Below are positions 1,410-57,466 of a stretch of DNA of 64,000 bases, in pieces. Position numbers and translations under genes: made by a program. The notes below the pieces were generated by a model. It did no database searches. It saw only the letters and a program-made list of their open reading frames with translations, and was not told where the DNA came from. This DNA is from Clostridiales bacterium. GTDB lineage: Bacteria; Bacillota; Clostridia; Christensenellales; UBA1242. How positions within the stretch are numbered: position 1 is the stretch's first letter; each line of letters begins with the position of its first letter. Location: the NCBI GenBank assembly GCA_015069415.1, contig SVIQ01000003.1, forward strand, positions 19,300-83,299, written 5' to 3'.

Positions 1410-3389
1410 ATGAACGAAAGAATTAAAAAGTTTTTTAAATTTAATATGCTAGTTTTCATATACTCTATTTGTGCAATCTTAATGGAATTAATTAGCATTT
1501 GTTTTACAGACTGCAAACCATATCTAACAAAACCGGTTTATCCTTTAGTTTTGTTTAGTTTAATTTTACTCATCTTATTTTTATTTAAAAGTGTAAAAAC
1601 TAAGGTAACAATTTGTTCAATATTACTATTTGCCCAAGTCGTTTTAAACGTTGGATTTGTCTATCTTTATGATTCAAACGGAACATATTTTGAATGGGCA
1701 ATGATCAACCAACGAAATGATGCTTTTGGAACAATTGAAGATTTATCTTTAAGGTGGAGCCTACTTACAATTTTAATGACTATATTTGTTATATATTTAA
1801 TTGGCTCAATTCTTACGATAAAATTTTTCTACAAAAAGGACACTAAACATAAAACTTACAAACTTACAAAAATTATTATCTCTTCCCTTCTCGCAATTTG
1901 TTCAATATTTATTGTTTTGAATCCAACAATAAGCGCAATTCAAAGTAGCAAACAAAGTTATGTTGACAGATTTTTATATAGTGACGCAACAAGCAAATAT
2001 CAACAACTTGGAATTTCTTCAAATGCAATTTACGAAACTATTAATGGAACAATTGTTGACAACCTTGTAAAGCATGACAACAAAGGAATAGAAAAATTTA
2101 TTTACGAAGATGAAAATGCTTTACTTGCTACTTCTCCATATTTTGGAATTAGCAAAGACAACAATTTAATTTACATACTTGTAGAGTCGTTTGAGTGGTA
2201 TGTGTTCCTTGAAAATTGCACACCAGAACAATCTCAAATTTTGTACCCAAACTTAAATAAATTCTTTTCAGATAGCATATATGCAGACAATTTCTATGCA
2301 AGAGAAAAAACAGACACTTCAGAAATGCTTGCCCTACTTGGAAGCAACCCTACAGGGAAATATACAAATTATGATTTCCCCAACAATTCTTTCGATTGGT
2401 CGCTTCCTAATTTATTTAAAGAGCATGTTAAAAACAACGGTAAAGACCTTGTACAAATCAAATCATTCCACCAAAACAACGGAGATTTTTACAACAGAAA
2501 CACACTTCATGAAAATTTAGGATTTGAACAACTAATCGACATAGAAGAAATGAAAGAATTCGGTCTTGTTGACACATGGAAAGGAAACCGAGAAAAGGGT
2601 CAAAGAACGCTAGACTCTGAAACTATGCTAAAAATGAAAGATGAAATGTTCCCAGACACTGATAGCACAAATCAATACATGACATTCTGGTTAACATTTT
2701 CAATGCACGGACATTACAAAGACAGAAAAATACTTAAACCTTATTACGACAAACTTGATTCAGTTGGAGCCTACCCTGAAGGTAAAGGAACTAAAGGTGA
2801 TTATTTAAGAACATATGCTGCAACGGTTATGGATTTTGACAAGGCTCTTGGAATTATGATGGAAAAACTTGAGCAAAACGGAGATCTTGAAAACACCACT
2901 ATTGTAATGTTCGCTGACCACAACACCTATTACAACAATTTAAGCTATTATGCTAAAGACATTGACGAAAGATACAACAGTGAATTGTACAGAGTTCCAT
3001 TTATGATTTACGATCAAAAGTTAAAAACTCAATACGAATTAAACGAAGGAACAAACAAGATTTCTAAGTTCACAACCACTTCAGATATGTTGCCTACTAT
3101 ATTAGATATTTTCGGAATAAATGGTTACAAAAACTTATACTATGGAACTTCTATGTTTGTAAAAAATGTTGAATCTGTAATATTTTCTAGAGCGTACGGA
3201 ATTTTTGTTACAGACAAATTAATTTGTTTTGGAGCAAACGACCTTCTTTACAAATCTAGCGATTTCACTAAAGATGACTACGAAAGTTTCTTATCCCGCG
3301 CTGAAACATTACTAACCAAACAAGAATACTTAGATAAAATTTACTACAATGATTATTTCAAAAATCATCCATTAAGAAAAATAAGTTAG
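1410..3389 (+). CDS. LtaS-family sulfatase / phosphoglycerol transferase-like membrane protein
   Basis: N-terminal multi-TM block plus an extracytoplasmic sulfatase-type domain. Motifs: VESFEWY, REKTDTSEMLALLGS, FADHNTYY. Confidence 0.75.
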   Translation: MNERIKKFFKFNMLVFIYSICAILMELISICFTDCKPYLTKPVYPLVLFSLILLILFLFKSVKTKVTICSILLFAQVVLNVGFVYLYDSNGTYFEWAMINQRNDAFGTIEDLSLRWSLLTILMTIFVIYLIGSILTIKFFYKKDTKHKTYKLTKIIISSLLAICSIFIVLNPTISAIQSSKQSYVDRFLYSDATSKYQQLGISSNAIYETINGTIVDNLVKHDNKGIEKFIYEDENALLATSPYFGISKDNNLIYILVESFEWYVFLENCTPEQSQILYPNLNKFFSDSIYADNFYAREKTDTSEMLALLGSNPTGKYTNYDFPNNSFDWSLPNLFKEHVKNNGKDLVQIKSFHQNNGDFYNRNTLHENLGFEQLIDIEEMKEFGLVDTWKGNREKGQRTLDSETMLKMKDEMFPDTDSTNQYMTFWLTFSMHGHYKDRKILKPYYDKLDSVGAYPEGKGTKGDYLRTYAATVMDFDKALGIMMEKLEQNGDLENTTIVMFADHNTYYNNLSYYAKDIDERYNSELYRVPFMIYDQKLKTQYELNEGTNKISKFTTTSDMLPTILDIFGINGYKNLYYGTSMFVKNVESVIFSRAYGIFVTDKLICFGANDLLYKSSDFTKDDYESFLSRAETLLTKQEYLDKIYYNDYFKNHPLRKIS

Positions 3390-3419: not shown

Positions 3420-5639
3420 TTAATTAATTTCCTTTAGCTTTTCAACAAATATTTCAGCATTTGTTTTTGACTTATCATTGATATTTTTTCTTCCCCAATA
3501 ATCATTGTAGAAAATTCTGTTACATGCACTAAGTTTCTCGAGTAAAATCTGAGCTTCCTTTTCCACTTGATCTATGTAATCTTCACTATCATAGAATTTG
3601 ATATCTGCATATTTCATTGCTACATCGTTATTGTTTTCAGGATTATCTTTTCTTAAGTACTTAATGTTGTTTAAACTTACAAAATAAATACTGTCAGTAA
3701 TAAACATATCATAAGCTCTAGAATACAAAACGCTTATGTCTAACTCAAAAGCCGAATGTCCAAAATATAAATTTCCAAACACATTTATTCCACATAAATC
3801 TAACAATGTTGGAACAATGTCAGCTGTACACATGAATTTCTTAACCTTGATTTGTGTTCCGCCACCAGTAGGATTAATTTGATATCTTTCTTGAATTTGA
3901 AGCTTAGCCAAATCTAATGCATCTTGACTAGCCATTCCTAATTCTTCATATTTATTTTTTAATTCGCTCACTAATGTAGTTGAAATGTGATTTTGAATTC
4001 GATTACTTAAACTTTCAGGAACATTAATCATAAGAGGAACTCTAAATAAATTTGTGTAATTTTCATGTTTTTCATTATCTATATCTTTTACATAATTAGA
4101 CAAACTTGAGTAATAAGTGTTGTGATCGCCAAACATACAAATTATGGTGTTATCTTTTAATCCTCTTTGCTCCAGCTCTTCCATAATCACCCCAACAGCT
4201 CTATCCAATTCCATTACGCACGCACAGTAGTAGTAGAAATTGTTGTGATTAAATGCGGAGAAACTATCCCCTTTCTTTTCTTTTATTCCGAACTTAGCCA
4301 TAGCATCGTAGTAACCGCGTTTTTCTAAATTGTTACGATAAGTATATTGTCCATGCATTGTTATACTTGTTATGTATGTGTAAAATCTTTGATCAGTTGG
4401 GAACATCTTGTCTGCACAAACTTCAATCATGTCAGCATCGAGATTTCTTTCACCTTTCGCACTCCAGTCAGTCATGCCCCACTTTTTCATTTGTTCAGTA
4501 GCATTGTAACTGTCAAATCCTGCAGACAACAATTCTTTATTTCTGTTGTAATAAGTGTAACTTCCGTTATGGAATGAATTTGCTGTAATATCTTCATCTA
4601 ACGACTTTAGAACGTTTGCCATTGTCGTACTCATTGTATTTGATGGGAAATCGTAGTTAATATAAACATTTGTTGGATATGAACCCAAGAAGCTTAAATT
4701 TTCAGAGATATCTGTTTTTTCTCTAGAATAAAAGTTACTCATAACTAAACTTGAATCATAGAAAGCATAAAGATTTGGATACAATTCTCTTAAAATTTGC
4801 TCTGCACTTGTGTAAGGATTTCCATTTTCGTCACTGTAATTAGAATAGTTTATGTCATAACCATTTACAAACAATTCAGCGTCTTGCATAAATCCATGCC
4901 ATTCAAAAGATTCTGCTAATATTGTTATAACGTTATACTCTTCCGTCGTTTCAAAGTTTGTTTGATAAATATTATTTGCATCATAAATAAATGTTTCAAG
5001 TTGCTGTTCATCTCCTAGTTTCACATTACTAAAGAATGTACCTTTTACAACTTCGTTTAGGAAATTTCCAACCGCTCCATATTCACAATAAGATGCTTCA
5101 CTTGTTCTGTACAACTTGTCAGTTACATCGTTTTCAAAATCTTTGTTGTTGAAGTATAAAATTGTGCCCAAAGTGCTAACCGCTACAATTGATGTTGGAA
5201 TTGCCCACCATTTGATGCTAACAGGTGGTTCAGCATGTCTAACATAACGCGCACCAAAAACAATATATAATGCAATAGCCAAAGCAGAAACTGTGAAAAA
5301 GGCGAAATTTATTGGAACAGACTCTAAAATAGCCATACCATCATTTCTTAAGTTAAACATTCCGAAATCAAAGATAGTTTCAGTCATTTCAAAGATTACA
5401 ATGAAAACTAAATTGACTATCATGAAAAATATTAATAAAACTGATGATACTATATGTCTTGCCTTATTTGACGGAATTGACAATAAAATTGCAACGATAA
5501 ATAACTGTAATGTCAAAAAGATGAACGGCATACGAATGTAAAACTTTCCACTTGTAACAATTACAGCCATCAATTCGATTAAAAATACTAAACCGAAATA
5601 AATCCAAATTAATGAATTAGACTTTAAAAATTTTTTCAT
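3420..5639 (-). CDS. LtaS-family sulfatase paralogue (739 aa, with inserted segments)
   Basis: Same architecture as 1410..3389. Motifs: AESFEWHGF, SREKTDISENLSFLGS, FGDHNTYY. SD AGGTGA. Confidence 0.75.
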   Translation of the reverse strand: MKKFLKSNSLIWIYFGLVFLIELMAVIVTSGKFYIRMPFIFLTLQLFIVAILLSIPSNKARHIVSSVLLIFFMIVNLVFIVIFEMTETIFDFGMFNLRNDGMAILESVPINFAFFTVSALAIALYIVFGARYVRHAEPPVSIKWWAIPTSIVAVSTLGTILYFNNKDFENDVTDKLYRTSEASYCEYGAVGNFLNEVVKGTFFSNVKLGDEQQLETFIYDANNIYQTNFETTEEYNVITILAESFEWHGFMQDAELFVNGYDINYSNYSDENGNPYTSAEQILRELYPNLYAFYDSSLVMSNFYSREKTDISENLSFLGSYPTNVYINYDFPSNTMSTTMANVLKSLDEDITANSFHNGSYTYYNRNKELLSAGFDSYNATEQMKKWGMTDWSAKGERNLDADMIEVCADKMFPTDQRFYTYITSITMHGQYTYRNNLEKRGYYDAMAKFGIKEKKGDSFSAFNHNNFYYYCACVMELDRAVGVIMEELEQRGLKDNTIICMFGDHNTYYSSLSNYVKDIDNEKHENYTNLFRVPLMINVPESLSNRIQNHISTTLVSELKNKYEELGMASQDALDLAKLQIQERYQINPTGGGTQIKVKKFMCTADIVPTLLDLCGINVFGNLYFGHSAFELDISVLYSRAYDMFITDSIYFVSLNNIKYLRKDNPENNNDVAMKYADIKFYDSEDYIDQVEKEAQILLEKLSACNRIFYNDYWGRKNINDKSKTNAEIFVEKLKEIN

Positions 5640-5646
5640 ATTTCAC

Positions 5647-6315
5647 CTACAACAAATATACTAAATAGCACAAAAGCCATGTTAATCCAAATTTCTTTTC
5701 TGCCACTAAATATATAATTCCATACAAGAAACTGATGATCAAGTAAAAAGCTCTCAAATCCATTGCTAAAACAAAGAAGTCAATTATTCCAAAAGTAAGC
5801 AAAGCAAAAATCGCTCCATAAGGAATTATCCATTTTGTTTTAAAAATCTTTTCGCAACCTTTTTGTGTGCAAACTATGAACAAAATCATCAACACCATTC
5901 GAACTGCAAATGAAAGAATTTCCACCGCATTGCAAGCCAATCCGACAGATGTAACTTTTACACCTAGAGAGTATACGATTTTTACTTTCCAATTTATGCA
6001 TGCACTTACAATTAACATAGGTAAAATTGCTAAAACAAAAAGTAAAATTACTTGAATTGTCGTTAATTCTTTTTTGTTTTTGTTTTCAAACAGTTCTATT
6101 TTCAGTTTTTTACAAACAAACAAAATTAAAATAATTTCAACACCCCAAACAATAGCATTGATTAATGAGGTAAACAATTTAACTAAATTTCCATAGTAAA
6201 TATCATCAAAAATCGGCACAAACAATTCGCTCACAGCGCTTGAATACAAACACAGCAAAATAATTCCTGCCAAACAAAAATATTTAATTGAACTCTTATC
6301 TTTAACAAATGTCAT
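5647..6315 (-). CDS. hypothetical polytopic membrane protein, probably co-transcribed with 3420..5639
   Basis: 222-aa hydrophobic ORF with SD AAGGTG. Its stop lies 7 nt before the next start. Confidence 0.55.
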   Translation of the reverse strand: MTFVKDKSSIKYFCLAGIILLCLYSSAVSELFVPIFDDIYYGNLVKLFTSLINAIVWGVEIILILFVCKKLKIELFENKNKKELTTIQVILLFVLAILPMLIVSACINWKVKIVYSLGVKVTSVGLACNAVEILSFAVRMVLMILFIVCTQKGCEKIFKTKWIIPYGAIFALLTFGIIDFFVLAMDLRAFYLIISFLYGIIYLVAEKKFGLTWLLCYLVYLL

Positions 6316-6332
6316 ATTTTCACCTTACTTAA

Positions 6333-6361
6333 ATTATACCAACTTCGACAAAAAATTACAA
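6333..6361 (-). promoter_or_regulatory. sigma-A-type promoter (TTGTAA-17-TATAAT) with a 0A-box heptamer in the spacer
   Basis: Minus strand reads TTGTAA ttttttGTCGAAgttgg TATAAT. TGTCGAA lies at 6344..6350. Confidence 0.55.
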
Positions 6362-6428
6362 TCGTATATTAAAATTTTATTTCATTTTAACAAAAAACCT
6401 TTTACAATAAAGAATTTATGATCAAATA

Positions 6429-6457
6429 TTGACTTTTATTGATAAATTAGATATAAT
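6429..6457 (+). promoter_or_regulatory. sigma-A-type promoter of the metG leader (TTGACT-17-TATAAT)
   Basis: TTGACT at 6429..6434, a 17-nt spacer, TATAAT at 6452..6457. Confidence 0.65.
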
Positions 6458-6478
6458 GAATTATATCAAGGAGAAAAA

Positions 6479-6532
6479 ATGACATTTAATTTTGTAGCAG
6501 AACTTAATATGATGAGCACTATGTTAGTTTAA
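6479..6532 (+). CDS. candidate Met-rich leader peptide MTFNFVAELNMMSTMLV
   Basis: AAGGAG 5 nt upstream of the ATG. 17 codons plus TAA, and 3 of the last 7 codons are ATG. Sits between the promoter and a terminator upstream of metG. Confidence 0.4.
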   Translation: MTFNFVAELNMMSTMLV

Positions 6533-6588
6533 TATAACATAGATGTTTGTTGCGCAAATTTTAATATGTTTTAAAAAATAATAAAAAG

Positions 6589-6620
6589 AGAGCATCGAAT
6601 GTCGGTGCTCTTTTTGTTTT
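6589..6620 (+). terminator. intrinsic terminator inside the metG 5' leader (attenuator)
   Basis: AGAGCATCG-AATGT-CGGTGCTCT (9 bp, one G.U pair) followed by TTTTTGTTTT, 96 nt upstream of the metG ATG. Confidence 0.7.
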
Positions 6621-6715
6621 GGAGGTAGTATGATTTTACAGTATAACAATAATAGACTAATGCGATTTTTATTAATATCAAAAAATAATAAAATTAAAAA
6701 AAGGAGAAATTAAAA

Positions 6716-8302
6716 ATGAATAATATATTTATAGGACTATCTTGGCCGTATGCAAACGGCGAATTGCACATTGGACATTTAGGTTCATCTTTACCCGCAG
6801 ATATTTTAGCTAGATATTTTAGACTAAAAGGGGAAAATGTATGCTTTGTAAGTGGAAGCGACTGTTTTGGAACACCTATTTCAATTCAGGCCCAAAAAGA
6901 AAACACAAAACCAGATATCATTGCGAACTTTTATCATGAAAAATTTGTTGAAATTTTTAAACAATTAGATTTTTCTTTTGATAATTACACGAAAACATCA
7001 AACGAATATCATATAAACTTTGCAAAAGATTTTCATGATGATTTATACAAAAGTTCTTATGTGTACAAAAAAGAAGAACAACGATTATTTTGTCAAAGTT
7101 GTAAACGATTTTTGCCAGACAGATACGTATTAGGACTGTGTCCTAAATGCGGGAATATCACTAAAGGTGATGCATGCGAAAAATGTGGGAAAATCTTAGA
7201 ACCTGAAGAACTGTTTAATCCTAAATGTGGAATTTGCAATTCAACACCTATCTTAAAAAATACTTTTCAATATTATTTAGCATTATCCAAATTAGAAGAT
7301 CAATTAAAAAAGTTTTATCAAAATAACAACGAAAATTGGTCAACAAACGCTAAAAAATTAACCGAAAGATACTTTAGTGAAGGCTTAATCGACAGAGCTA
7401 TTTCTCGAGATTTAGATTGGGGAGTTCCTATTCCCTCTTCCGACTCTAAAGAAAAAGTTATTTACAATTGGGGAGAAAATGTTTTAGGTTACGTTGACGC
7501 TTGCAAAGAATATTGCGAAAAAAACAATTTCAATTTCAATGATTGGTTCAAAAGCAACGATTGTAAACATTATTATATTCACGCCAAAGACAACATTCAG
7601 TTTCATACAATAATATACCCCGCACTATTACTTGCAAATAGCAAACAATATCATTTGCCCGACAACATATATGCATACGAATTTGTAAACAATGAAGGAC
7701 AAAAAATTTCTAAAAGCAAAGGAACTTGTTTGACAGCCAGAGAATTATTAGAAAAATTTGATGTTGACTTTTTAAGGTTTTACTTTGCAAAAAATATTAG
7801 TGATAAAAAAGACTTAGATTTTAGATTGGAAGAATTTGCAAACACCGTAAATGGCGAATTAATTAACAACTGGGGAAATTTTGTTAACAGAACTCTATCT
7901 TTTGTAAAGAATAAATTTAATGGAAAAATTAAAAAATCTGTTCTTGATGATAATATCAAAACAAGAATTGAAGAAACTTTTACTAACACATCCAATTTCA
8001 TTGAACAAGGAAAAATTGCTAATGCTTTGAGAACAATTTTAGAACTTGTTGATTTTTCAAACAAATATTTCAACGAAACTGAACCTTGGAACGCTTTTAA
8101 GATTAATGAAGAAAAATGCAAAAATTTATGTTATCAATATCTTTCTCTTATATTGAATTTGGCAATTTTGTTAAATCCATTTATTCCTAAAAGTAGTAAC
8201 CAAGTCTTGAATTGGTTAGATACAAAATTAGAACGTTATCAAACAAATGAATTGTCAGATGTTGAAATTTTAGAATTTAATCCTTTGTACTCTAGAATTT
8301 AA
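6716..8302 (+). CDS. metG: methionyl-tRNA synthetase (short form, no C-terminal tRNA-binding domain)
   Basis: HIGH motif (ELHIGHLGS), KMSKS-type KISKSKG, and a CPKCG...CEKCG zinc knuckle. Confidence 0.95.
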   Translation: MNNIFIGLSWPYANGELHIGHLGSSLPADILARYFRLKGENVCFVSGSDCFGTPISIQAQKENTKPDIIANFYHEKFVEIFKQLDFSFDNYTKTSNEYHINFAKDFHDDLYKSSYVYKKEEQRLFCQSCKRFLPDRYVLGLCPKCGNITKGDACEKCGKILEPEELFNPKCGICNSTPILKNTFQYYLALSKLEDQLKKFYQNNNENWSTNAKKLTERYFSEGLIDRAISRDLDWGVPIPSSDSKEKVIYNWGENVLGYVDACKEYCEKNNFNFNDWFKSNDCKHYYIHAKDNIQFHTIIYPALLLANSKQYHLPDNIYAYEFVNNEGQKISKSKGTCLTARELLEKFDVDFLRFYFAKNISDKKDLDFRLEEFANTVNGELINNWGNFVNRTLSFVKNKFNGKIKKSVLDDNIKTRIEETFTNTSNFIEQGKIANALRTILELVDFSNKYFNETEPWNAFKINEEKCKNLCYQYLSLILNLAILLNPFIPKSSNQVLNWLDTKLERYQTNELSDVEILEFNPLYSRI

Positions 8303-8304
8303 TA

Positions 8305-8332
8305 AAAAAACAACTCGCTCGAGTTGTTTTTT
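8305..8332 (+). terminator. rho-independent terminator after metG
   Basis: AAAAAACAACTC-GCTC-GAGTTGTTTTTT. Confidence 0.8.
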
Positions 8333-8346
8333 CATGTTATATTATA

Positions 8347-8405
8347 CTTGTTCGAGTTCTCTCATCAAAAAAATGACCTTGCGGTCATTTGGTAGAGATG
8401 AGTGG
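8347..8405 (-). repeat. 59-bp duplicate of the tRNA-Ile 3' end (16 nt) plus its terminator
   Basis: Matches 8501..8559 at 57 of 59 positions. Contains CCACTCATCTCTACCA (minus strand) and the AAATGACC/GGTCATTT hairpin. Confidence 0.85.
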
Positions 8406-8500
8406 GTTTGCGCGTAAATAAAAGTTGCCACAATTGGCAAGTTTTTAGCTTGCAAACGGGAGAAATCTATGATTTCGGTCTGGAACCGACAGGTTTCGAA

Positions 8501-8559
8501 CTTGTTCGAGTTCACTCATCAAAAAAATGACCTTACGGTCATTTGGTAGAGATGAGTGG
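8501..8559 (-). repeat. master copy of the 59-bp repeat (tRNA-Ile 3' end plus terminator)
   Basis: See 8347..8405. The terminator hairpin AAATGACC-GTAA-GGTCATTTTTTT lies on the minus strand. Confidence 0.85.
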
Positions 8560-8620
8560 ACTCGAACCACCGACCCCCACCTTATCAGGGTGGTGCTCTA
8601 ACCTGCTGAGCTACATCTCT
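8544..8620 (-). tRNA. tRNA-Ile (anticodon GAT), CCA encoded
   Basis: The reverse complement folds as a cloverleaf. Acceptor AGAGATG/CATCTCT, anticodon loop CTGATAA, T-loop TTCGAGT, 3' ACCA. Confidence 0.9.
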
Positions 8621-8713
8621 TCATATTAATTTGTTTTAAGAACTTTTTAACTAATTAACACTAATTTTGACTTACGTCTGGTGGAGAATAATTCCATTCT
8701 CCAGAATTGCATT

Positions 8714-8790
8714 TGGTGGAGAATATCGGGCTCGAACCGATGACCTCCTGCTTGCAAGGCAGGCGCTCTAGCCAACTGAGCTAATCCCCC
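8714..8790 (-). tRNA. tRNA-Ala (anticodon TGC), CCA encoded
   Basis: 5' GGGGGAT...ATTCTCC-A-CCA acceptor with G3:U70, anticodon loop CTTGCAA, T-loop TTCGAGC. Confidence 0.9.
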
Positions 8791-8810
8791 ATAAATCAAA
8801 ATGCATTTAT

Positions 8811-8839
8811 ATATTACCAAGATTTAAGATATTTGTCAA
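8811..8839 (-). promoter_or_regulatory. sigma-A-type promoter of the tRNA-Ala/tRNA-Ile unit (TTGACA-17-TAATAT)
   Basis: Minus strand reads TTGACA aatatcttaaatcttgg TAATAT, about 20 nt upstream of the tRNA-Ala 5' end. Confidence 0.6.
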
Positions 8840-8959
8840 TAAATTTTCACAAATATTTTAAAATTTTTTTATATTTTCACTTTTATTCGAAAATGTAAGT
8901 AAATTAAAATGCATTTTTCTTCCTAAAAACAAAAAATTGAGACTGAGTCTCCTACCAAA

Positions 8960-10018
8960 TTACTGATTAACAACATTTCCATCCGACACAATCAATCTAG
9001 TGTCTGCAAGGCGTTCAAATAATTGTAATTTTTGTGTCATAATTGCAAAAGTTGTAATTGAACCGCAATCATAACCATCTTTAGTAAGAGATAAAAGTTT
9101 TTTAGTGAGTGTCATATTTTCATCATCAATGCCCAAAAGAGAATTAACGTCATCAATAATGATAATAACATTTTGTCCTAATTCATATTTTCGCATAGCT
9201 CTTTTTATTGCTAAATTTAGTAAGCTCTTTGCGTAATCAAAATTTTCAGTGATATCACAAGTAAACATTTCACAGTTGTTGAGTTTCTTTAAATACATTC
9301 TATTTCGTTCGGTAAGAGTTAAATTAATGTAAATTTTCTTTTCATCCGGACAATTTTCAAACATATTCATAATTGCTTTTGTGTTTTCGTTACTATTTTG
9401 TCCATAGATATATACATTTTGACCATACTTAATTTCAAAACTCATTAGATTTTTATCTAAAAATTTAATAGGAACATCAGGCTCTTTTGCACTGTCATCA
9501 TAATAAGTAACATAATACTTTTGACCCGGGATTGCCTCAAGTCCATTTACAGCTTGAATGTTTGAAATTAAAGTTTTACCTTCCCTGTTTTCCAAAATAG
9601 CTTCAACATAATCTCCAGATACTAAATCAAAAGAGTCTGCAATAGCTTTAGGCAATGGATGCTGAACAAAACGATCAAAGCTTTTCTGCCAAACGAAATT
9701 TAATTCACCATTTCTTTCAACATAACCAGATATTTCAAAATAATTTTCTCCATCCGGACAAGAAGTATGTTGAGAAAATGTTATATTTTCATTACTTTGC
9801 ACAAGATTGAAAAAATCCACGAAAGACAAGCCCACATTCTTCGGTGGACGACCTTGCTTTGACTTTTTAAGACTTGGTTGTTGAGTGCCTTCTTTTAACG
9901 ACAAAATTTCGTCAATAAGTTGCTCTTTCTTTTTACTAGTAGGCGACTTAACTCCAGAACGTCTCGCAAGTTCTCTAAGCATATATATATTGTAATCGTT
10001 TAATTCTTCTCTAGTCAT
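8960..10018 (-). CDS. Rho-like protein: Rho_N/SAP-like N-terminus, OB-like middle, RecA-like fold with degenerate Walker A
   Basis: By-eye alignment to E. coli Rho. The N-terminus (LRELARRSGVKSPTSKKKEQLIDEIL) resembles Rho_N. IKYGQNVYIYGQNSNENTKAI aligns with IGRGQRGLIVAPPKAGKTML, so the P-loop is lost. LTERN aligns with IDERPEE, VIIIIDDVNSL with VIILLDSITRL, and GSITTFAIM with GSLTIIATA. The C-terminus is about 70 aa shorter. Confidence 0.6.
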   Translation of the reverse strand: MTREELNDYNIYMLRELARRSGVKSPTSKKKEQLIDEILSLKEGTQQPSLKKSKQGRPPKNVGLSFVDFFNLVQSNENITFSQHTSCPDGENYFEISGYVERNGELNFVWQKSFDRFVQHPLPKAIADSFDLVSGDYVEAILENREGKTLISNIQAVNGLEAIPGQKYYVTYYDDSAKEPDVPIKFLDKNLMSFEIKYGQNVYIYGQNSNENTKAIMNMFENCPDEKKIYINLTLTERNRMYLKKLNNCEMFTCDITENFDYAKSLLNLAIKRAMRKYELGQNVIIIIDDVNSLLGIDDENMTLTKKLLSLTKDGYDCGSITTFAIMTQKLQLFERLADTRLIVSDGNVVNQ

Positions 10019-11386: not shown

Positions 11387-13789
11387 TTAAAATGCAACAG
11401 TTACAGTAATTGTGTCTGCTTGATTACAAGATTTAAATATATCACTTAAATTTGTTAAATCAAAATTATCTTTTGTCATTGTTACAGACTTTTCTCCGAA
11501 AGTAAATGTAACACTTTGTGGATAATGTTTAACAATGTCAAAATTGATACCTGAAGCTTTTTCGATATAAATATTGTCAAAGAAGTAAGCCTTCAATTCG
11601 TCGTTTGTATATTTTGTCATTGAATCTACAACACCAAAATAATCAACAGCTTTATCTTTAATTACAAAATCTTTACATGCTACAAATTTTGAAATTTTAT
11701 TTGTAATTTTAATGAAATCATTTTCTGGTGCATATGCGTTTTTATATTCGACAAGCACGTCTCTTATATTTACAGCTTCAATTACATAATTTGCAATTTC
11801 ATCATTGTTTTTACCAATTAGAACAATCGCTTGATCTTCTTGATAAGTTTGAACAATCAAATTTGTTACAGTTAAAGTTTCATCTGAATTCTTTTTGTAA
11901 ACAATCCAATTTGATTTAGTTGTTTCAGGTAAAATACAACCATAGTAATTTTTACCTTCTGTGTAAGTTTCAATTGAATATGTTTTCTTAACAAGTTCAT
12001 TTCCATCTTCAACAAATGTCACAGTGTACTGAATAGCAAATTTTTGAGCTACAATTTCTTGATTTGTTGTGTAGTTCAAATCAACTGTTGGCCAAGCTAA
12101 TTCATAATATTTTTCAACTACAACTCCATCAAGACTAGGTAATTCAATTGTTGAAAGGTCTGTTTCAATAGTGTATGTTTTTAAAACTGATGTAGAGCTA
12201 TCCGCAAACGCATACCCTTCTGGAAGTTTGTATGTTACATTATATTGAGTTGGAGTTTTAACTAATACAACTACAATATTTCCACCATTAGTTAAATCGT
12301 AATCATCCCATTTTGTATCATAATGCTCAACAGTTGGAACTTCTGGAACAGTAATTGTTTTGTTTTCAATGTCATATGTTTCAGTAGCAATTTCAGTTTC
12401 ACCATTCTTGAATGTAACAGTATACTCAACTGGAGTTTTTACTAATTCAACTGTTTTGTTTTCAAGTTTTGTTAAATCATATTCTTCCCAACGAGTTTCG
12501 TAATGGGCTATTGTTGGAACTTCTGGTTCTTCAATTGTTCTGTCTAAAATTGTATAAGTGTCGCTACCAACTTCTGTAGAACCGTTCATAAATTTAACTG
12601 TGTAAGATGTTGCAGTTCCGCTAAGAGTAACGTTTTCAAAATCCTTAAGTTCATTTGTGTCAAAAGATGACCAATTTACTTCTCCTTCAAAGTAAGCTTT
12701 TACGTCGTCAGGAATTGCAGGAGCAACAACTTCTTTATTTTCAACAGTATATTGTTTTACTATTTGAGAAGATTCATTTTCAAATGTAAATCCTTCTGGT
12801 AAATTAAATTTCACAGAATAAACGATTGGACTAACTACAGCCATTACTTCAACTGAATTTTGTTCATCAAAATCAAATGTGAATTCTGGCCAAATCATTT
12901 CATAATGTTCTTCAACTTCTACGTCAGTTAAACTTGGTAGAACAAAAGATGATTCTTCATCTAAAACTGTGTATGTTTTCTCAATGAATGTTATTGAATC
13001 AACAAATTCATAACCTTCTGGTAAAACAAATTTAATAGGATAGTTGATAATAGATTTTTCTACTTGAATTTCTTGTCCTACAACAAATTCTAAAGTATAG
13101 TCAGGCCAAGCAAATGTATAACCATTTTCTACAGGAAGAGCTGGAACAACTATTGAATCTTTATTTTCTACTGTATACTCAACATTTCCACCATCCACAA
13201 CGCTGTGACCGTATTTAAATATCAAACTATATTTATTAGGTGTTTCAATTCTTGTAATAGTTACGTCTTGTGTGATCTTAGTTTCACTAGTAACTTCAGT
13301 TTCTCCAATTTTATAAACATATGTATAATGTTCTCTCGGAGTATATTTAGAATTTAATTCCTCTAAAATACCATTTGCACCACTGAATTTAAAACTATCT
13401 TCGAAAGTTCCGTCTTTTACAACGACATTAAACTTTTCTTCAGCGAAAACAGCCTTAAATTTCGCATTTTTACTAATTGACAATTTTAATTTCTTATTTA
13501 AGCTATAATCTTTATCGTTTTTTTGCCATTTAACGAATGTCATTTTTTCTTTCGCAACAGCATTAAGTTCAAGCTTAGATTTTTTTGTTACAGTAAATTC
13601 ATCTGAAGTTCCTGCACCAATTTCATAATCCTTGTCATCAATAGACAATTGTACTTTTCCACCATCAGATGCTGAAATTGACAAAGTATATTCTTTCTTG
13701 TCTTGAACATTTTTAGTCACAAAGATAACACCAACGGCTAGTGCTGTAACAATTAAAACTGGTATAAGAATACTAATTAATTTTTTCAT
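11387..13789 (-). CDS. N-terminally anchored surface protein with about 9 Listeria-Bacteroides-type repeat modules
   Basis: Signal-anchor KKLISILIPVLIVTALAVGVIF. Recurring ~70-aa units (Y.V.F...G...TYT..D..I..P..P....Y...W..YDLT). Confidence 0.65.
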   Translation of the reverse strand: MKKLISILIPVLIVTALAVGVIFVTKNVQDKKEYTLSISASDGGKVQLSIDDKDYEIGAGTSDEFTVTKKSKLELNAVAKEKMTFVKWQKNDKDYSLNKKLKLSISKNAKFKAVFAEEKFNVVVKDGTFEDSFKFSGANGILEELNSKYTPREHYTYVYKIGETEVTSETKITQDVTITRIETPNKYSLIFKYGHSVVDGGNVEYTVENKDSIVVPALPVENGYTFAWPDYTLEFVVGQEIQVEKSIINYPIKFVLPEGYEFVDSITFIEKTYTVLDEESSFVLPSLTDVEVEEHYEMIWPEFTFDFDEQNSVEVMAVVSPIVYSVKFNLPEGFTFENESSQIVKQYTVENKEVVAPAIPDDVKAYFEGEVNWSSFDTNELKDFENVTLSGTATSYTVKFMNGSTEVGSDTYTILDRTIEEPEVPTIAHYETRWEEYDLTKLENKTVELVKTPVEYTVTFKNGETEIATETYDIENKTITVPEVPTVEHYDTKWDDYDLTNGGNIVVVLVKTPTQYNVTYKLPEGYAFADSSTSVLKTYTIETDLSTIELPSLDGVVVEKYYELAWPTVDLNYTTNQEIVAQKFAIQYTVTFVEDGNELVKKTYSIETYTEGKNYYGCILPETTKSNWIVYKKNSDETLTVTNLIVQTYQEDQAIVLIGKNNDEIANYVIEAVNIRDVLVEYKNAYAPENDFIKITNKISKFVACKDFVIKDKAVDYFGVVDSMTKYTNDELKAYFFDNIYIEKASGINFDIVKHYPQSVTFTFGEKSVTMTKDNFDLTNLSDIFKSCNQADTITVTVAF

Positions 13790-13810: not shown

Positions 13811-15187
13811 TTATCCAACGATAATTTCATCAAAATCAACATCAGGCACAGGTTCTTTTAAATCTGCATTTTCTGTTGCAGAAGATGATGAGCTATCTGA
13901 TGTTTCTGGAGCTAAAGTTGTTTCACTTTCTGAAGTCACAATTGAAGAATCTACAGACCCTTGAGGTTCTTGTGTAGCATCTGTTGATGGAGTTTCAACA
14001 ACTGGTGGCTCATCTGTAACTGTGTCAGATTGTGATGGTGTTGTAGGAGCTGGTGTTGTTGTGCTTTCTGTTTTAAGACTTGCATTGTAAGTAGCAACAA
14101 GTTCTGAAATAATTTTGTTTAACTTTGCTTGTTTAGCTTCATTCCAAACTAATCCACCAAAATCAACAGTCACAGTTACACCTTCAGTCTTTTCACCATT
14201 TAATCTTCCGGCTAAAATATCTTCTAATTCTTCCACGCTCAAAGCACCGTTTGAACTGTTAATTGTAACTGGAATTGAGAATTCAGTGTATTCTGAATAA
14301 GAAGTAATAATTCTCATACTGTAGTTATAAGTATCATTAGATGCTGGCAATTTTCCCTTGTAGCTAATTCTAGTTGAATGAGCAACATCTCCGCGAACAA
14401 TTTCTTCTAATTTGTCCATACCTTCTTTAGTCATTTTTGAAGTTTTAAGACCTTGTCTACCAACTTCTTGAATGAGAGCATCCACAATATTTTTGCCTTC
14501 TCCCAATTTTGAAACATCAAAATCAGCTCCGATTTGTTCTAAAATTTGTTCTTGAGTGAAAGTTACAATGCTTTCGCATGTGTTATTTCTTACAAATTCG
14601 AAAACTAGATCAAGGTATTCCAAGATTGAAGCGTTATTTCCAATGTATGCTCCATCTTTAAACATAGAATGAGCTGTTTTTCTGATTTCCATCATGTCAT
14701 CAATATTTTCTTCGTTGGCTTTGTATGTAGCATAACCGTCAGACACCGCTCCTTGACCTGTCATAACTTTTCCAAGCACTCTCAATTCAGCATTTTCTTT
14801 AGTTTCTCCAACGACTTCAAATCCAGAACATTTAATTAAGATTTTAATTGTGTTAACTTCACCAATTTCGTAATCAGATCCTACAGCTTTTGCAATAGCT
14901 TCTGTTTTTTGAGCGATTTGAGAGTCTTCAACATTCTCATCACTACAAGCTGTCAAAACAGCTGGAGATACAGCTAACAATAAAGCCGTTAAGAAAGCAC
15001 CAATTCTCTTCTTACCTTTAGAAATTCCGTAACCAGTCTTAACTGCAGCTTCTTTTATTGCTTGTCCTGCACTCTTAGCAAGAGCTCCTGTTCCTCTTGC
15101 AAGTTTTTTCATTCTTTCATAAATTGACATTTTTTGTTCTTCAGTCAATCCCTTAACAAATTCCTCAACATTAATATTCTTTTTCAT
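13811..15187 (-). CDS. putative lipoprotein with a long cytoplasmic N-extension and a Ser/Thr/Pro-rich tail
   Basis: Start set at the ATG preceded by GGAGGGG. Lipobox-like LLLAVSPAVLTAC lies about 80 aa in. C-terminal TTPAPTTPSQSD...SSSSS tract. Confidence 0.55.
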   Translation of the reverse strand: MKKNINVEEFVKGLTEEQKMSIYERMKKLARGTGALAKSAGQAIKEAAVKTGYGISKGKKRIGAFLTALLLAVSPAVLTACSDENVEDSQIAQKTEAIAKAVGSDYEIGEVNTIKILIKCSGFEVVGETKENAELRVLGKVMTGQGAVSDGYATYKANEENIDDMMEIRKTAHSMFKDGAYIGNNASILEYLDLVFEFVRNNTCESIVTFTQEQILEQIGADFDVSKLGEGKNIVDALIQEVGRQGLKTSKMTKEGMDKLEEIVRGDVAHSTRISYKGKLPASNDTYNYSMRIITSYSEYTEFSIPVTINSSNGALSVEELEDILAGRLNGEKTEGVTVTVDFGGLVWNEAKQAKLNKIISELVATYNASLKTESTTTPAPTTPSQSDTVTDEPPVVETPSTDATQEPQGSVDSSIVTSESETTLAPETSDSSSSSATENADLKEPVPDVDFDEIIVG

Positions 15188-15218
15188 TTTCCCCTCCATA
15201 ATTTTTCGAGATGATTAT

Positions 15219-33607: not shown

Positions 33608-34936
33608 GTGAAATCAATACTTAAGAATATATGGAAATTTTTAAACGGAAAATCAACTAAAATTTACATAGCAAAACTTTTAATGATTGTTAGTGTTTAC
33701 ATTCCATCTATATTTTATAAACATTTTAGCTATGCAACAGTCGGACTTGCTGTTTTATTTATTCTATGTGAATTTTCAACTAGTTCAATTTTATGGTTAG
33801 TAATTACTGCACTAAACAGAGCCTATCTTTCAGACAACCAAATGATGATAGTTTATACAATATTCACAATTGTTCTTTTTATAAAATTTATTTTTCAATT
33901 AAGAAAAAAGGAAATTAATTACAAAAGCAAATATTTCTTGACTATATGCTCTTTATTTTTACTGTTTACAATCTTTGTAATGTTCCCATTTTCGAAATAT
34001 TATAACTTTTCCAATGCTTTGCGAACAGAAATTTTAATACTTATGCTAATTCTTTTATTTAGCCAAAGAAAAAATATCAATATTTATAACCTATTCTTAT
34101 CTTTCTTCATATATGTAATCTTAGTTTCATGTTTTATGCTTGCCCTACAAAATTATATTGAAGGAGCCACTCATTACAAATGCTGGTTTAACAACAATCT
34201 ATATGTAAGATTAGACGCTTTTTTAGGCAATCCAAACTTTGGCACAGCTATTATGCTTGTGGCACTGTCCGCATGGATTGTCTTATATAAAAAAGGTTTA
34301 TTAAAAAAATATGTTTATTTCTTTGGATTATTTGCTATTTCAAGTTTTATTATTTTAACCATTTCAAAAACTGGAGCAATAATTTTAACTTTATTAATAA
34401 TTTATGTTGTAACAGAAAGTATAATTCTAACAATTAAAACCAAAGACAAAAAACATCTGTATGAAATTTTATTTTATTTTGTGAGCATTTTAACTGCTTG
34501 TTTAGTATGTTTCAATCACACAGGAGCAATCTTAAACAGATTTTTCGGAAATCATCAATCTTCGCATTATGAACCGGGTTTAGACACTCTAACAACCGGA
34601 AGAGTTGGATTGTTGAAAAAATATTTAAAAGACATTTTCTCCTCACCAAGAACATTCCTCTTTGGTCATTGTGGAGTTTCAATTGTACACAATGTCTTCA
34701 TAGACTATATTTATCGAGTAGGACTTATTCCTACTATCATTCTAGGGATTATGTTAGTTATGTCAATTGATCCATTCTTTAAACAAATCAAACCATATGG
34801 AATTATTGCTTCATTAATAGTAATTTTAACATATTGTACAATAGGTTCAACATCACTAAAACATCTTCAACTTTACATCGTGGGATACTTAACAATATAT
34901 TTCTCAGCTCAACCTAACAATCAAAAAAGTAGTTAG
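33608..34936 (+). CDS. O-antigen ligase/polymerase (Wzy_C)-like polytopic membrane protein
   Basis: About 11 TM helices. FLGNPNFGTA loop and HNVFIDYIYRVGLIP motif typical of the family. GTG start after AGGAG. Confidence 0.6.
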   Translation: MKSILKNIWKFLNGKSTKIYIAKLLMIVSVYIPSIFYKHFSYATVGLAVLFILCEFSTSSILWLVITALNRAYLSDNQMMIVYTIFTIVLFIKFIFQLRKKEINYKSKYFLTICSLFLLFTIFVMFPFSKYYNFSNALRTEILILMLILLFSQRKNINIYNLFLSFFIYVILVSCFMLALQNYIEGATHYKCWFNNNLYVRLDAFLGNPNFGTAIMLVALSAWIVLYKKGLLKKYVYFFGLFAISSFIILTISKTGAIILTLLIIYVVTESIILTIKTKDKKHLYEILFYFVSILTACLVCFNHTGAILNRFFGNHQSSHYEPGLDTLTTGRVGLLKKYLKDIFSSPRTFLFGHCGVSIVHNVFIDYIYRVGLIPTIILGIMLVMSIDPFFKQIKPYGIIASLIVILTYCTIGSTSLKHLQLYIVGYLTIYFSAQPNNQKSS

Positions 34937-44660: not shown

Positions 44661-44688
44661 AAAAAAACAGCATAAATGCTGTTTTTTT
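44661..44688. terminator. bidirectional terminator (small ORF / trpS)
   Basis: AAAAAAA-CAGCA-TAAA-TGCTG-TTTTTTT. Confidence 0.75.
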
Positions 44689-45673
44689 ACAATAATCCCA
44701 TGTTTTGTTTTGCTCTTTCTAAAGTTTCCTTTGCAACAACTTCAGCTTTCTTTGCACCCTTTTTCATTATTTCCATTAATTCATCTTCATGAGACAAATA
44801 GTACTCATATTTCTCTCTAATAGGTTTTAAAACAGAAATTATTGCTTCTGCTGTTCTATTTTTCAATGCTCCATAACCAAGACCTTCTAACTCTTTAACA
44901 ACATCTTCAATTTCTTTACCTTCACAAGCTGAAATTATAGTTAAAAGATTGCTTACTCCAGGTTGATTTTCTTCATCAAATTTAATTTGATTTAAGCTGT
45001 CAGTTACTGCTCTTTTTACTTTTTTAACAATAACTTCATCTGAATCTTCAAGTAAAATCATATTGTTTACATCGTCACCAGATTTACCCATTTTTGCTTG
45101 AGGATTTAACAAACCTTTAATTCTAGCACCAACTTTAGGAACTACCGCTTTCGGAACTACAAATGTTGCACCAAAACGATTATTAAATCTATTTGCAATA
45201 TCTCTTGTAAGCTCGACATGTTGCACCTGATCTTCTCCTACCGGAACAATGTTAGTATTAAACAACAATATATCTGCAGCCATAAGAACAGGATAAGTAA
45301 ACAACGCAGTTGTTAGCCCCTTTTCTCCTTTTGCAACATGATCTTTATATTGAGTCATGCGGTTTGCTTCACCCATCATAGTATTGCAATTTAACAACCA
45401 ACAAAGTTCGCTGTGTTCTTTTACTTGAGATTGAACATAAATAATAGACTTCTCTGGATCTAATCCGCATGCTAAAAACATAGCAAATTGTTTCATTGTC
45501 TTTGTTTTTACAAAGTCCGCAGACAAATCAACAGTATGAGCATGAAGATTTGCAATACAAAAATAGCAATCGTACTCATCTTGCAACTTAATCCAATTTT
45601 TTATAGCTCCAAGATAATTTCCAATGGTTAAATCTCCTGTAGGTTTAGTTGCACTATATAAAATCTTTTTCAT
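44687..45673 (-). CDS. trpS: tryptophanyl-tRNA synthetase
   Basis: KPTGDLTIGNYLGAI (HIGH region) and KMGKSG (KMSKS). 328 aa. Confidence 0.93.
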   Translation of the reverse strand: MKKILYSATKPTGDLTIGNYLGAIKNWIKLQDEYDCYFCIANLHAHTVDLSADFVKTKTMKQFAMFLACGLDPEKSIIYVQSQVKEHSELCWLLNCNTMMGEANRMTQYKDHVAKGEKGLTTALFTYPVLMAADILLFNTNIVPVGEDQVQHVELTRDIANRFNNRFGATFVVPKAVVPKVGARIKGLLNPQAKMGKSGDDVNNMILLEDSDEVIVKKVKRAVTDSLNQIKFDEENQPGVSNLLTIISACEGKEIEDVVKELEGLGYGALKNRTAEAIISVLKPIREKYEYYLSHEDELMEIMKKGAKKAEVVAKETLERAKQNMGLL

Positions 45674-45684
45674 AATATCTCCTT

Positions 45685-45738
45685 AAATAAAAACACTTGA
45701 TGCGTTCGTAATGTTATCCACAAAACATGCACCAAGTG
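45685..45738 (-). terminator. intrinsic terminator-like hairpin inside the trpS 5' leader (attenuator)
   Basis: Minus strand reads CACTTGGTGC-(25 nt)-GCATCAAGTG followed by TTTTTATTT. The single G.U pair works only in the minus-strand RNA. Ends 11 nt before the trpS SD. Confidence 0.6.
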
Positions 45739-45802
45739 CAAAATATTCAACAAATGTCTTGTGGCGAAATTAAAAACCACTTACACTAAATGTAAGTAAA
45801 AT

Positions 45803-45832
45803 TTATTTACGCCAACCATACATTCTAAACAT
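45803..45832 (-). CDS. candidate leader peptide MFRMYGWRK containing a Trp codon
   Basis: AAGGAG 6 nt upstream of the ATG, at the very 5' end of the predicted transcript. TGG lies at 45812..45814 and overlaps TGGCG, which can pair with CGCCA 46 nt downstream. Confidence 0.35.
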   Translation of the reverse strand: MFRMYGWRK

Positions 45833-45852
45833 TTTTTTCTCCTTATATTATA

Positions 45853-45881
45853 AGTATATCTAACAAAAACAATTTTGTCAA
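45853..45881 (-). promoter_or_regulatory. promoter TTGACA-17-TATACT of the trpS leader
   Basis: Minus strand reads TTGACA aaattgtttttgttaga TATACT. Confidence 0.6.
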
Positions 45882-57417: not shown

Positions 57418-57466
57418 AAGATAAATTCATATAGTCGCCTCATTGCTCTTATTTGAATTTTAATTG

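Follow-up and report, generated by a model that had tools for sequence, protein, structure and literature searches.

A predicted methionine leader-peptide attenuator, with a conserved second upstream reading frame, ahead of metG in uncultured gut Clostridia

We analyzed a stretch of 64,000 nucleotides (nt) from a Clostridiales bacterium (GenBank assembly GCA_015069415.1, contig SVIQ01000003.1, positions 19,300 to 83,299), hereafter called the window, with attention to the leader of metG, the gene for methionine--tRNA ligase (MetRS). Positions 6429-6715, directly upstream of metG, very probably form a classical ribosome-mediated transcription attenuator that sets metG expression by the supply of Met-tRNA(Met). 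Most likely, to judge from the arrangement of its parts, the attenuator would increase MetRS output in response to a shortage of charged methionine tRNA. A first-pass annotation of the window had proposed an attenuator of the trpL/pheM type, keyed to Met codons, in the place where a T-box might be expected, and every comparative test that we ran supported that proposal. The promoter, the first upstream open reading frame (uORF1), its Met codons, the 8-bp hairpin, the terminator, and the second upstream open reading frame (uORF2) that it had listed are all present at the positions it gave. Thus, the region has what is expected of a leader-peptide attenuator: an open reading frame (ORF) preceded by a Shine-Dalgarno (SD) sequence, cognate codons, a terminator, mutually exclusive pairings, and, in thermodynamic modeling, a suitable stall geometry. 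The support for the attenuator is comparative and thermodynamic.

The G+C content of the window is 32%, and faecal metagenomes were the only source of near-identical DNA. Identity to the closest MetRS genes is 63 to 71%; these come from metagenome-assembled genomes (MAGs) labelled uncultured Clostridia, Christensenella, and Lachnospiraceae, and from gut metagenome assemblies. We compared 12 distinct leaders, those of the window and of the contigs L001-L005, L011, L012, L013, L015, L016, and L019. In the 11 further contigs the MetRS is 65 to 71% identical to that of the window, and all of them, as well as their duplicates and the 5′-truncated contig L020 (MetRS 63% identical), have the same leader before metG. 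The genes 5′ of the leader vary from contig to contig and include hisS, genes for sigma factors, a glycosyltransferase, and a NERD-domain protein, and divergently transcribed genes; therefore, the leader belongs to metG. Kept across the leaders are the −35 element (TTGACTTTT), the −10 element, the SD sequence, the spacing of the ATGATG, hairpin 1 (described below), the terminator, the second SD sequence, and the start of uORF2; the upper stem and loop of the terminator are variable. A metagenome scan for further loci gave only five, none with the leader, and the DNA contigs of six faecal metagenomes added one variant leader and nothing else.

All features of the metG leader are on the plus strand. 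The sigma-70-type promoter (6429-6457) consists of TTGACT (6429-6434), a 17-nt spacer, and TATAAT (6452-6457); it matches the consensus at 11 of 12 positions and is the top promoter-like site within 5600-9000. The promoter scan gave nothing promoter-like in the interval from the terminator to metG. Transcription would start near 6464. The SD sequence of uORF1, AAGGAG (6468-6473), is separated from the ATG by five A residues, and in 12 of 12 leaders an SD sequence lies 5 to 9 nt ahead of the ATG. The frame itself (6479-6532) encodes the Met leader peptide MTFNFVAELNMMSTMLV in 17 codons plus a stop (6530-6532), a length found in 9 of the 12. Codons 11 and 12 (6509-6514) are the tandem Met codons that we propose as the stall and sensing site, and a third Met codon, Met15, follows at 6521-6523. 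The mini-ORF and its Met codons are retained in all 12 leaders, and the ATGATG never varies and always shares the reading frame of the start codon. It lies 30 nt from that codon in 11 leaders and 33 nt in L015; this in-frame insertion of 3 nt is the sole indel in the N-terminal coding part of uORF1. The Met codons are often MMM, and the peptide outside them is variable. For comparison, the dipeptide MM occurs 12 times in the 16,791 residues of the window ORFs.

Three regions of the leader RNA, numbered with the terminator's 3′ arm as the fourth, can pair in alternative ways. Region 1 (6487-6502), which is codons 3-8 of uORF1, pairs with region 2 at 6545-6561 to form the lower stem of an anti-antiterminator. 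RNAduplex gave this 1:2 duplex in 12 of 12 leaders, at −8.4 to −16.7 kcal/mol. The mean energy was −12.5 kcal/mol for cognate strands versus −9.3 kcal/mol for non-cognate strands; region 1 of L013, for example, scored −15.2 with its cognate region 2 versus −3.0 with an L002-type region 2. The two strands co-vary between subtypes (TTTGTAGCACAA/TTGTGCATACAAA, ATTTCGT.CAACAA/TTGTTG.ACGAAAT, and TTAGTTTTGC/GCAAAATTAA), and 5 of the 12 lower-stem pairs have compensatory changes, on both sides, in the alignment. The covariation score was matched in only 1 of 500 shuffles, and when the partner was slid by 1 to 3 columns the fraction of paired cells fell from 87% to 31 to 58%.

Hairpin 1 (6519-6542) consists of 8 bp between CTATGTTA (6519-6526) and TAACATAG (6535-6542) and is identical in all 12 leaders. 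It contains Met15 and the uORF1 stop, and a U-rich run, GUGUUUUGU, lies 3′ of it. Folding of the nascent leaders placed it as the apical part of the longer 1:2 stem. Thus, region 1 is codons 3-8 of uORF1 and not only the 8-bp hairpin that the first-pass annotation had described; the hairpin caps the 1:2 stem. Hairpin 1 may serve as an RNA polymerase pause hairpin that synchronises ribosome and polymerase. No further copy of its motif occurs in the window. Two other local structures were considered and set aside. An extension of hairpin 1, in which 6511-6518 (with the Met codons) pairs with 6544-6551, is predicted by RNAfold for the window and is impossible in L002-type sequences; a small hairpin within region 2 (TTTTGT/ACAAAA), given by RNAalifold, is weak and at most a minor competitor outside the switch.

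Region 2 as a whole spans 6542-6561, and folding and RNAduplex pair its part 6542-6553 (GATGTTTGTTGC) with region 3 (6592-6603, GCATCGAATGTC), the upper 5′ arm and loop of the terminator. This 2:3 duplex was also present in 12 of 12 leaders (−9.4 to −12.3 kcal/mol). Within each leader, nothing pairs better with the terminator 5′ half than region 2 does; the runner-up 16-nt windows gave −3.7 to −8.9. In 11 of the 12 leaders the observed value was better than 90 to 98% of loop shuffles (equalled in 9 to 51 of 500); in L013 it was equalled in 180 of 500. The loops of terminators normally drift freely. Here they keep complementarity to region 2 in several different versions: GATGTTTG/CGAATGTC, GATGTTTG/CAAGTATC, GTGTTTTG/CAAAATAC, and AGTGTTT/AAACACT. 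An earlier proposal for the register of this pairing, 6537-6545 with 6593-6602, had to be given up; it could form in the window, yet it lacks conservation, because ATGT is absent from the L002-type loops and RNAduplex favors 6542-6553 with 6592-6603 in all 12.

The intrinsic terminator (3:4 pairing, 6585-6620, −17.1 kcal/mol) has a stem of 9 bp, including one G-U, between 6589-6597 and 6603-6611, which is lengthened by pairs between the 5′ A tract and the 3′ T tract (TTTTTGTTTT, ending at 6620). The stem is retained in all relatives, with two compensatory pairs. A consensus scanner missed this terminator; the likeliest reason is that its stem reaches into the T run. The terminator is symmetric, with its 5′ A tract and 3′ T tract, and so looks like a minus-strand terminator as well; no minus-strand gene ends there. 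Pairings 1:2 and 2:3 share 6545-6553, and 2:3 and 3:4 share 6592-6597; therefore, each excludes the next.

We infer that the switch would operate as follows. Transcription would start near 6464, and translation of uORF1 would proceed alongside its transcription. If Met-tRNA(Met) is in short supply, a ribosome would stall when codon 11 or 12 (Met) occupies its A site and would cover approximately 6494-6524, a stretch that takes in the 3′ half of region 1 together with the foot of hairpin 1. Region 2 would then stay single-stranded and would capture region 3 once that is transcribed; the 2:3 pairing (6542-6553 with 6592-6603) would block the terminator, and transcription would continue into uORF2 and metG. 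When Met-tRNA is plentiful, the ribosome would reach the stop in the loop of hairpin 1 and leave. Region 1 (6487-6502) would then pair again with region 2 (6545-6561), capped by hairpin 1 (6519-6542), and region 3 would be left free for the terminator (6589-6611 plus the T tract), which would stop the polymerase at approximately 6612-6620.

To model the stalled state, nascent RNA up to the terminator loop was folded with a ribosome mask extending from −12 to +15, with Met11 in the P site and Met12 in the A site. With the ribosome masked at Met11/12, the minimum-energy fold contained the antiterminator (9 to 11 pairs) in 12 of 12 leaders. With no ribosome, the fold had 1:2 and lacked 2:3 in 8 of 12.

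Several observations weigh against the attenuator as we have drawn it. With no ribosome, the nascent RNAs of L004, L005, and L013 already favor 2:3, and those of L003 and L019 form neither 1:2 nor 2:3. When the full terminator is present it wins at equilibrium in all states, and therefore the switch must be kinetic, as it is in known systems. Region 2 begins 12 nt past the first base of the uORF1 stop, so that a terminating ribosome leaves it uncovered; the OFF state therefore would need prompt release of the ribosome and refolding of 1:2, an assumption about kinetics. Initiation, too, requires methionine, and under this model severe starvation would halt translation of uORF1 and cause termination. 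Hairpin 1, being invariant, gives no covariation support, and its extreme conservation could have a reason other than pausing. Some sequences do not fit well: the terminator stem of L019 has a C-A mismatch; of the three Met codons counted in the window by the first-pass annotation, the tandem pair is universal but the third is out of frame in L013; and in L003 (∼2750-3003) a 1-nt insertion after the MMM abolishes the uORF1 stop. This insertion is probably an assembly error. (Without that stop, uORF1 of L003 is in frame with uORF2 and metG.) No such Met leader was found at L008 (MetRS 69% identical over 100 amino acids), L006, or L022. We found no transcriptome sequencing (RNA-seq) or term-seq run that carries the sequence. 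Finally, the attenuator leaves uORF2 unexplained.

We scanned for known RNA families with Rfam 15. At the gathering thresholds, the whole window contains only the transfer-messenger RNA (tmRNA) and two tRNAs, and neither the window nor the 21 loci gave a match to a T-box, S-adenosylmethionine (SAM), or other riboswitch. At an E value of ≤10, region 6300-6800 gave only chance-level matches to small RNAs (best E = 0.086) and none to a T-box or leader family. The earlier failure to find a T-box or S-box by eye was therefore borne out by scans of the window, the leader, and the loci. As a positive control, the T-box model did detect a truncated T-box in L009. None of the Rfam leader families (Trp_leader, Phe_leader, Leu_leader, His_leader, Thr_leader, and others) matched at the metG leader; near trpS, leader-family matches were sub-threshold only and fell on an upstream gene-end terminator.

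Three other explanations of the leader were weighed. The promoter, uORF1, and the terminator might be an independent small gene, for a micropeptide or a small RNA, with metG transcribed from a promoter of its own and the Met codons incidental. The unit is indeed complete in itself, with promoter, SD sequence, ORF, and terminator, and the 5′ A tract of the terminator is like that of bidirectional gene-end terminators. However, it always lies directly 5′ of metG despite the differing neighbors, and no promoter-like site was found within 6458-6715 that could serve metG. The N-terminal half of uORF1 is not conserved as protein, yet it covaries with downstream RNA, and the terminator loop keeps its complementarity to region 2. 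Non-homologous leaders with cognate codons also stand ahead of metG, trpS, and asnS in relatives. We consider an independent gene very improbable. A switch worked by a trans-acting factor (uncharged tRNA(Met), MetRS, or another protein) that acts on hairpin 1 and its surroundings is somewhat less improbable but still unlikely. Hairpin 1 and its loop are invariant over approximately 30% divergence of MetRS, which exceeds what a pause hairpin needs; AUG and CAU triplets lie inside it; and aminoacyl-tRNA synthetases (aaRSs) can regulate themselves through mRNA mimicry, as E. coli thrS does. Yet the stacked constraints on the hairpin (coding for T-M-L, a stop in the loop, and pairing) can explain the invariance, there is no match to a T-box or other Rfam family, and the SD sequence, reading frame, and tandem Met codons are all conserved. 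The sister family described below lacks hairpin 1 but keeps the MMM, the antiterminator, and the terminator, and the trpS and asnS leaders have cognate codons and no common RNA motif.

Ribosome-stalling attenuators are common in Firmicutes (PMC2965389), and the leader might sense general translation stress, as from ribosome-targeting antibiotics (the erm/cat/ABCF type), rather than methionine specifically. The conserved peptide of uORF2 recalls those of drug-dependent arrest peptides. But the regulated gene encodes an aaRS, what is conserved in uORF1 is its run of Met codons while the remaining peptide varies, and three different aaRS genes carry runs or instances of the codon for their own amino acid; sensing of general stress is thus a most unlikely reading.

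The second reading frame, uORF2, is more than the second SD-led ORF that had been noted before; that it is present was correct, but its first 11 codons are also conserved as peptide. Its SD sequence, GGAGG (6621-6625), lies directly 3′ of the T tract and is kept in 12 of 12 leaders. The frame (6630-6713) has 27 codons and ends 2 nt ahead of the metG ATG at 6716. Its conserved core in the window, MILQYNNNRLM (6630-6662), ends with Met11 at 6660-6662. Among the 12 full leaders the core reads M-(I/V/Y)-(L/F)-(Q/K)-(Y/H)-N-N-(N/S)-(R/Q)-L-M, and the partial leader L020 has three extra N-terminal codons followed by the aligned residues IIIQYNNTNLM, so that Met11 is invariant in 13 of 13. Synonymous changes within the core are frequent (ATT/ATA, TTA/CTG, CAA/CAG, TAT/TAC, AAC/AAT, AGA/AGG, and CTA/CTG), and the numbers of extra states at codon positions 1, 2, and 3 are 8, 3, and 12. 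On this substitution pattern, the peptide encoded by the first 11 codons is under purifying selection.

Conservation ends sharply after Met11. Codon 12 is CGA (in most leaders), CGC, TGC, TGT, or, in L015, the stop TGA, and the tail is variable in sequence and length. Leu10 is always CTA or CTG. The codons that flank Met11 are thus rare ones, with frequencies per 1,000 codons in the genome of 5.1 for CTA, 1.4 for CTG, and 1.9 for CGA, versus 37 for TTA. The start of uORF2 is 82 to 95 nt from the metG ATG in every leader, whereas its stop varies in position, lying at most 47 nt upstream of the metG ATG and in the other extreme overlapping it. No conserved RNA structure connects uORF2 with the metG SD sequence; the predicted folds are weak, at −2 to −12 kcal/mol, and do not agree among the 12 leaders. 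The uORF2 motif has no further copy in the window.

We take uORF2 to be translated and its peptide to be of importance. It is dispensable for attenuation, since the sister metG family is without uORF2. Our best guess is that uORF2 is a site, assisted by the nascent chain, at which the ribosome slows or stalls at Met11, with an effect on the translation or stability of read-through mRNA. As a second tier of control, the nascent peptide (…QYNN-x-x-L-M) may arrest or slow the ribosome at Met11 on those transcripts that escape termination. That the leader as a whole is such a two-tier device, a Met attenuator plus an arrest checkpoint at uORF2, and that it belongs to a lineage-wide replacement of T-boxes by cognate leader peptides, is a combination that we put forward tentatively and regard as rather doubtful. 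Like the arrest peptides ErmCL/ErmBL, SecM, MifM, and TnaC, uORF2 (and uORF2 only) has an amino acid sequence that is conserved up to a sharp boundary, rare codons flank that boundary, and the tail past Met11 is variable or can be truncated. Unlike them, it has no conserved downstream structure or sequestered SD sequence. It resembles no arrest motif known to us.

Other aaRS genes, and more distant metG genes, were examined for leaders of the same kind. A different, simpler, and non-homologous metG leader occurs in a sister clade whose MetRS is 58% identical (L021 and L024/L025, which represent two genomic contexts). Its peptides, MKNIKNMMMRYI and MKNIKNMMMRVIRN, are of the MKNIKNMMM... type, with MMM; the antiterminator, TTGAAGGC/GCCTTCAA, adjoins the stop of the upstream ORF or overlaps with it and is followed by a terminator, with neither hairpin 1 nor uORF2. 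In these leaders (L021, 1340-1500; L024, 830-1000) the ATG of the ORF lies only approximately 7 to 9 nt past the −10 element and has no SD sequence; the peptide may be translated from leaderless mRNA. In L024, asnS is the next gene after metG, and its upstream ORF, MKILNNNNNNNFNHI, has seven consecutive Asn codons. That leader (2775-2950) is completed by a strong terminator and by an antiterminator, GATGTGC/GCACATC, located in the loop of the terminator. By contrast with these, the metG gene of the more distant L009 (MetRS 47% identical) is preceded by the 3′ half of a T-box (E = 5.9e-5), the remainder being cut off by the contig end.

Among the window ORFs scanned against Pfam, no aaRS genes other than metG and trpS were found, and a window-wide scan for SD-led short ORFs with a terminator ahead of a gene found cognate codons only at these two; short ORFs at 57430 and 50755, from the same scan, look like gene-end terminators and were discarded. 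The gene trpS (tryptophan--tRNA ligase, 44687-45673) is on the minus strand, and, as had been suggested, it is of the same design, with a Trp-codon leader that is conserved in L030. The leader (45685-45881; whole-leader fold z = −5.2) begins with a promoter, TTGACA (45881-45876) and TATACT (45858-45853). An SD-led upstream ORF, MFRMYGWRK (45832-45803), has its Trp codon (45814-45812) inside region 1 (TGGCG). There follow a hairpin (45797-45779), region 2 (CGCCACAAGACA, 45766-45755), which can pair with region 1 or alternatively with region 3 (TGTTTTGTGG, 45727-45718), and the terminator that contains region 3 (45738-45694), with its T tract, directly ahead of the trpS SD sequence. In L030 (trpS 72% identical) the leader peptide is MIRFLGWRK and the region 2 and region 3 sequences are the same, and the terminator stem has an entirely different sequence. 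In L026 (790-801), a trpS that is 80% identical begins approximately 10 nt after the gene for a major facilitator superfamily (MFS) transporter and has no leader; therefore, the trpS leader is not universal among close relatives. From these comparisons, the regulator upstream of aaRS genes appears to have changed several times in this group, and cognate-codon leader peptides recur.

The closest known systems are the leaders of E. coli pheST (pheM) and trp (trpL). Like them, the metG leader has a promoter-proximal short ORF with codons for the amino acid to be sensed, mutually exclusive 1:2, 2:3, and 3:4 pairings, and an intrinsic terminator before the regulated gene, and pheM likewise controls an aaRS operon (cited in PMC1262725). 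The metG leader differs in that it would sense methionine, its host is not a proteobacterium but an uncultured gut member of the Clostridia, and the Rfam scans show no sequence relationship. Its region 1 is upstream of the sensing codons, its invariant apical hairpin holds the stop, and it has a second uORF.

The T-box (RF00230) is the usual regulator of aaRS genes in Firmicutes. The metG leader would do the same task, reporting the charging of the cognate tRNA by an antiterminator/terminator switch before an aaRS gene, but it would sense through a translating ribosome and not by direct binding of tRNA. It has neither a Stem I with specifier nor the T-box sequence, and its terminator ends approximately 155 nt from the predicted transcription start, which is too short. 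One comparative study stated that classical attenuation controls no aaRS gene in Firmicutes (PMC1262725), and the exceptions reported since are few and predicted (PMC2965389, PMC9413887). The known Gram-positive leader-peptide cases, which are predicted or partly characterized, include leaders before Streptomyces trpS and leuS (PMC1262725), a His leader that bacilli have ahead of hisZ and of a paralogue of hisS (PMC2965389), further His leaders in Peptostreptococcaceae and Erysipelotrichales (PMC9413887), and the ilv-leu leader of S. aureus (PMC5794164). The predicted attenuators among them share with the metG leader its architecture and logic and were recognized by comparative genomics, several before aaRS genes. 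What is different here is the combination of Met with metG, the occurrence of at least three cognate aaRS leaders (metG, trpS, and asnS) in related uncultured Clostridia, and the two non-homologous metG leader families in sister clades. Full-text literature searches for a methionine or metG leader peptide gave nothing relevant; their coverage was incomplete, and the result is absence of evidence only.

The metG gene itself (6716-8302) is preceded by an SD sequence, AAGGAG (6701-6706, read from the sequence), and encodes a MetRS of 528 amino acids without the C-terminal tRNA-binding domain (NCBIfam TIGR00398, 498.5 bits; cutoff, 336). In L004, metG has an in-frame TAG (3028-3030) where all relatives have TGG, at the conserved Trp10. 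Recoding of TGA or TAG was considered as an explanation and rejected; a single TGG-to-TAG change at a conserved Trp is most likely an error or a strain variant. In L022/L023, from two NCBI MAGs, approximately 490 nt of extremely A-rich repeats (AAATTAAATAAA-like units; 500-1000) lie between dnaB and metG, and no recognizable leader was found in that stretch.

Downstream of metG, on the minus strand of 8340-8800, the genes for tRNA-Ile(GAT) and tRNA-Ala(TGC) stand alone, and two near-identical terminator hairpins (AAATGACCGYAAGGTCATTT; 8371-8390 and 8525-8544) lie within a duplicated segment of approximately 150 nt. The codon CGG is absent from the 16,791 codons of the listed window ORFs, and TGA is the stop codon in 2 of 39 ORFs. 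Four ORFs, 8960-10018, 11387-13789, 13811-15199, and 33608-34936 (352, 800, 462, and 442 amino acids), had no Pfam match at 1e-5; the first of these had no NCBIfam match either.

As judged from sequence, then, the metG leader is to be taken as a real and new Met-specific leader-peptide attenuator, predicted in a lineage where it was unexpected. A Met leader peptide is conceptually awkward because Met is needed to initiate translation of the leader, and with the metG leader one could test directly how attenuation deals with Met-dependent initiation. The compact and sharply bounded conserved peptide of uORF2 is a candidate for a new regulatory nascent chain. Knowledge of these leaders would improve the annotation of 5′ regions in gut MAGs, and the leaders could serve as portable sensors of the charging of Met-, Trp-, and Asn-tRNAs. 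For the biology of the group, the predictions imply that a clade of uncultured human-gut Clostridia would use leader peptides for at least metG, trpS, and asnS, in what is textbook T-box territory. At metG, with two unrelated Met leaders in sister clades and a T-box in a more distant relative, there may have been a natural swap of sensing systems.

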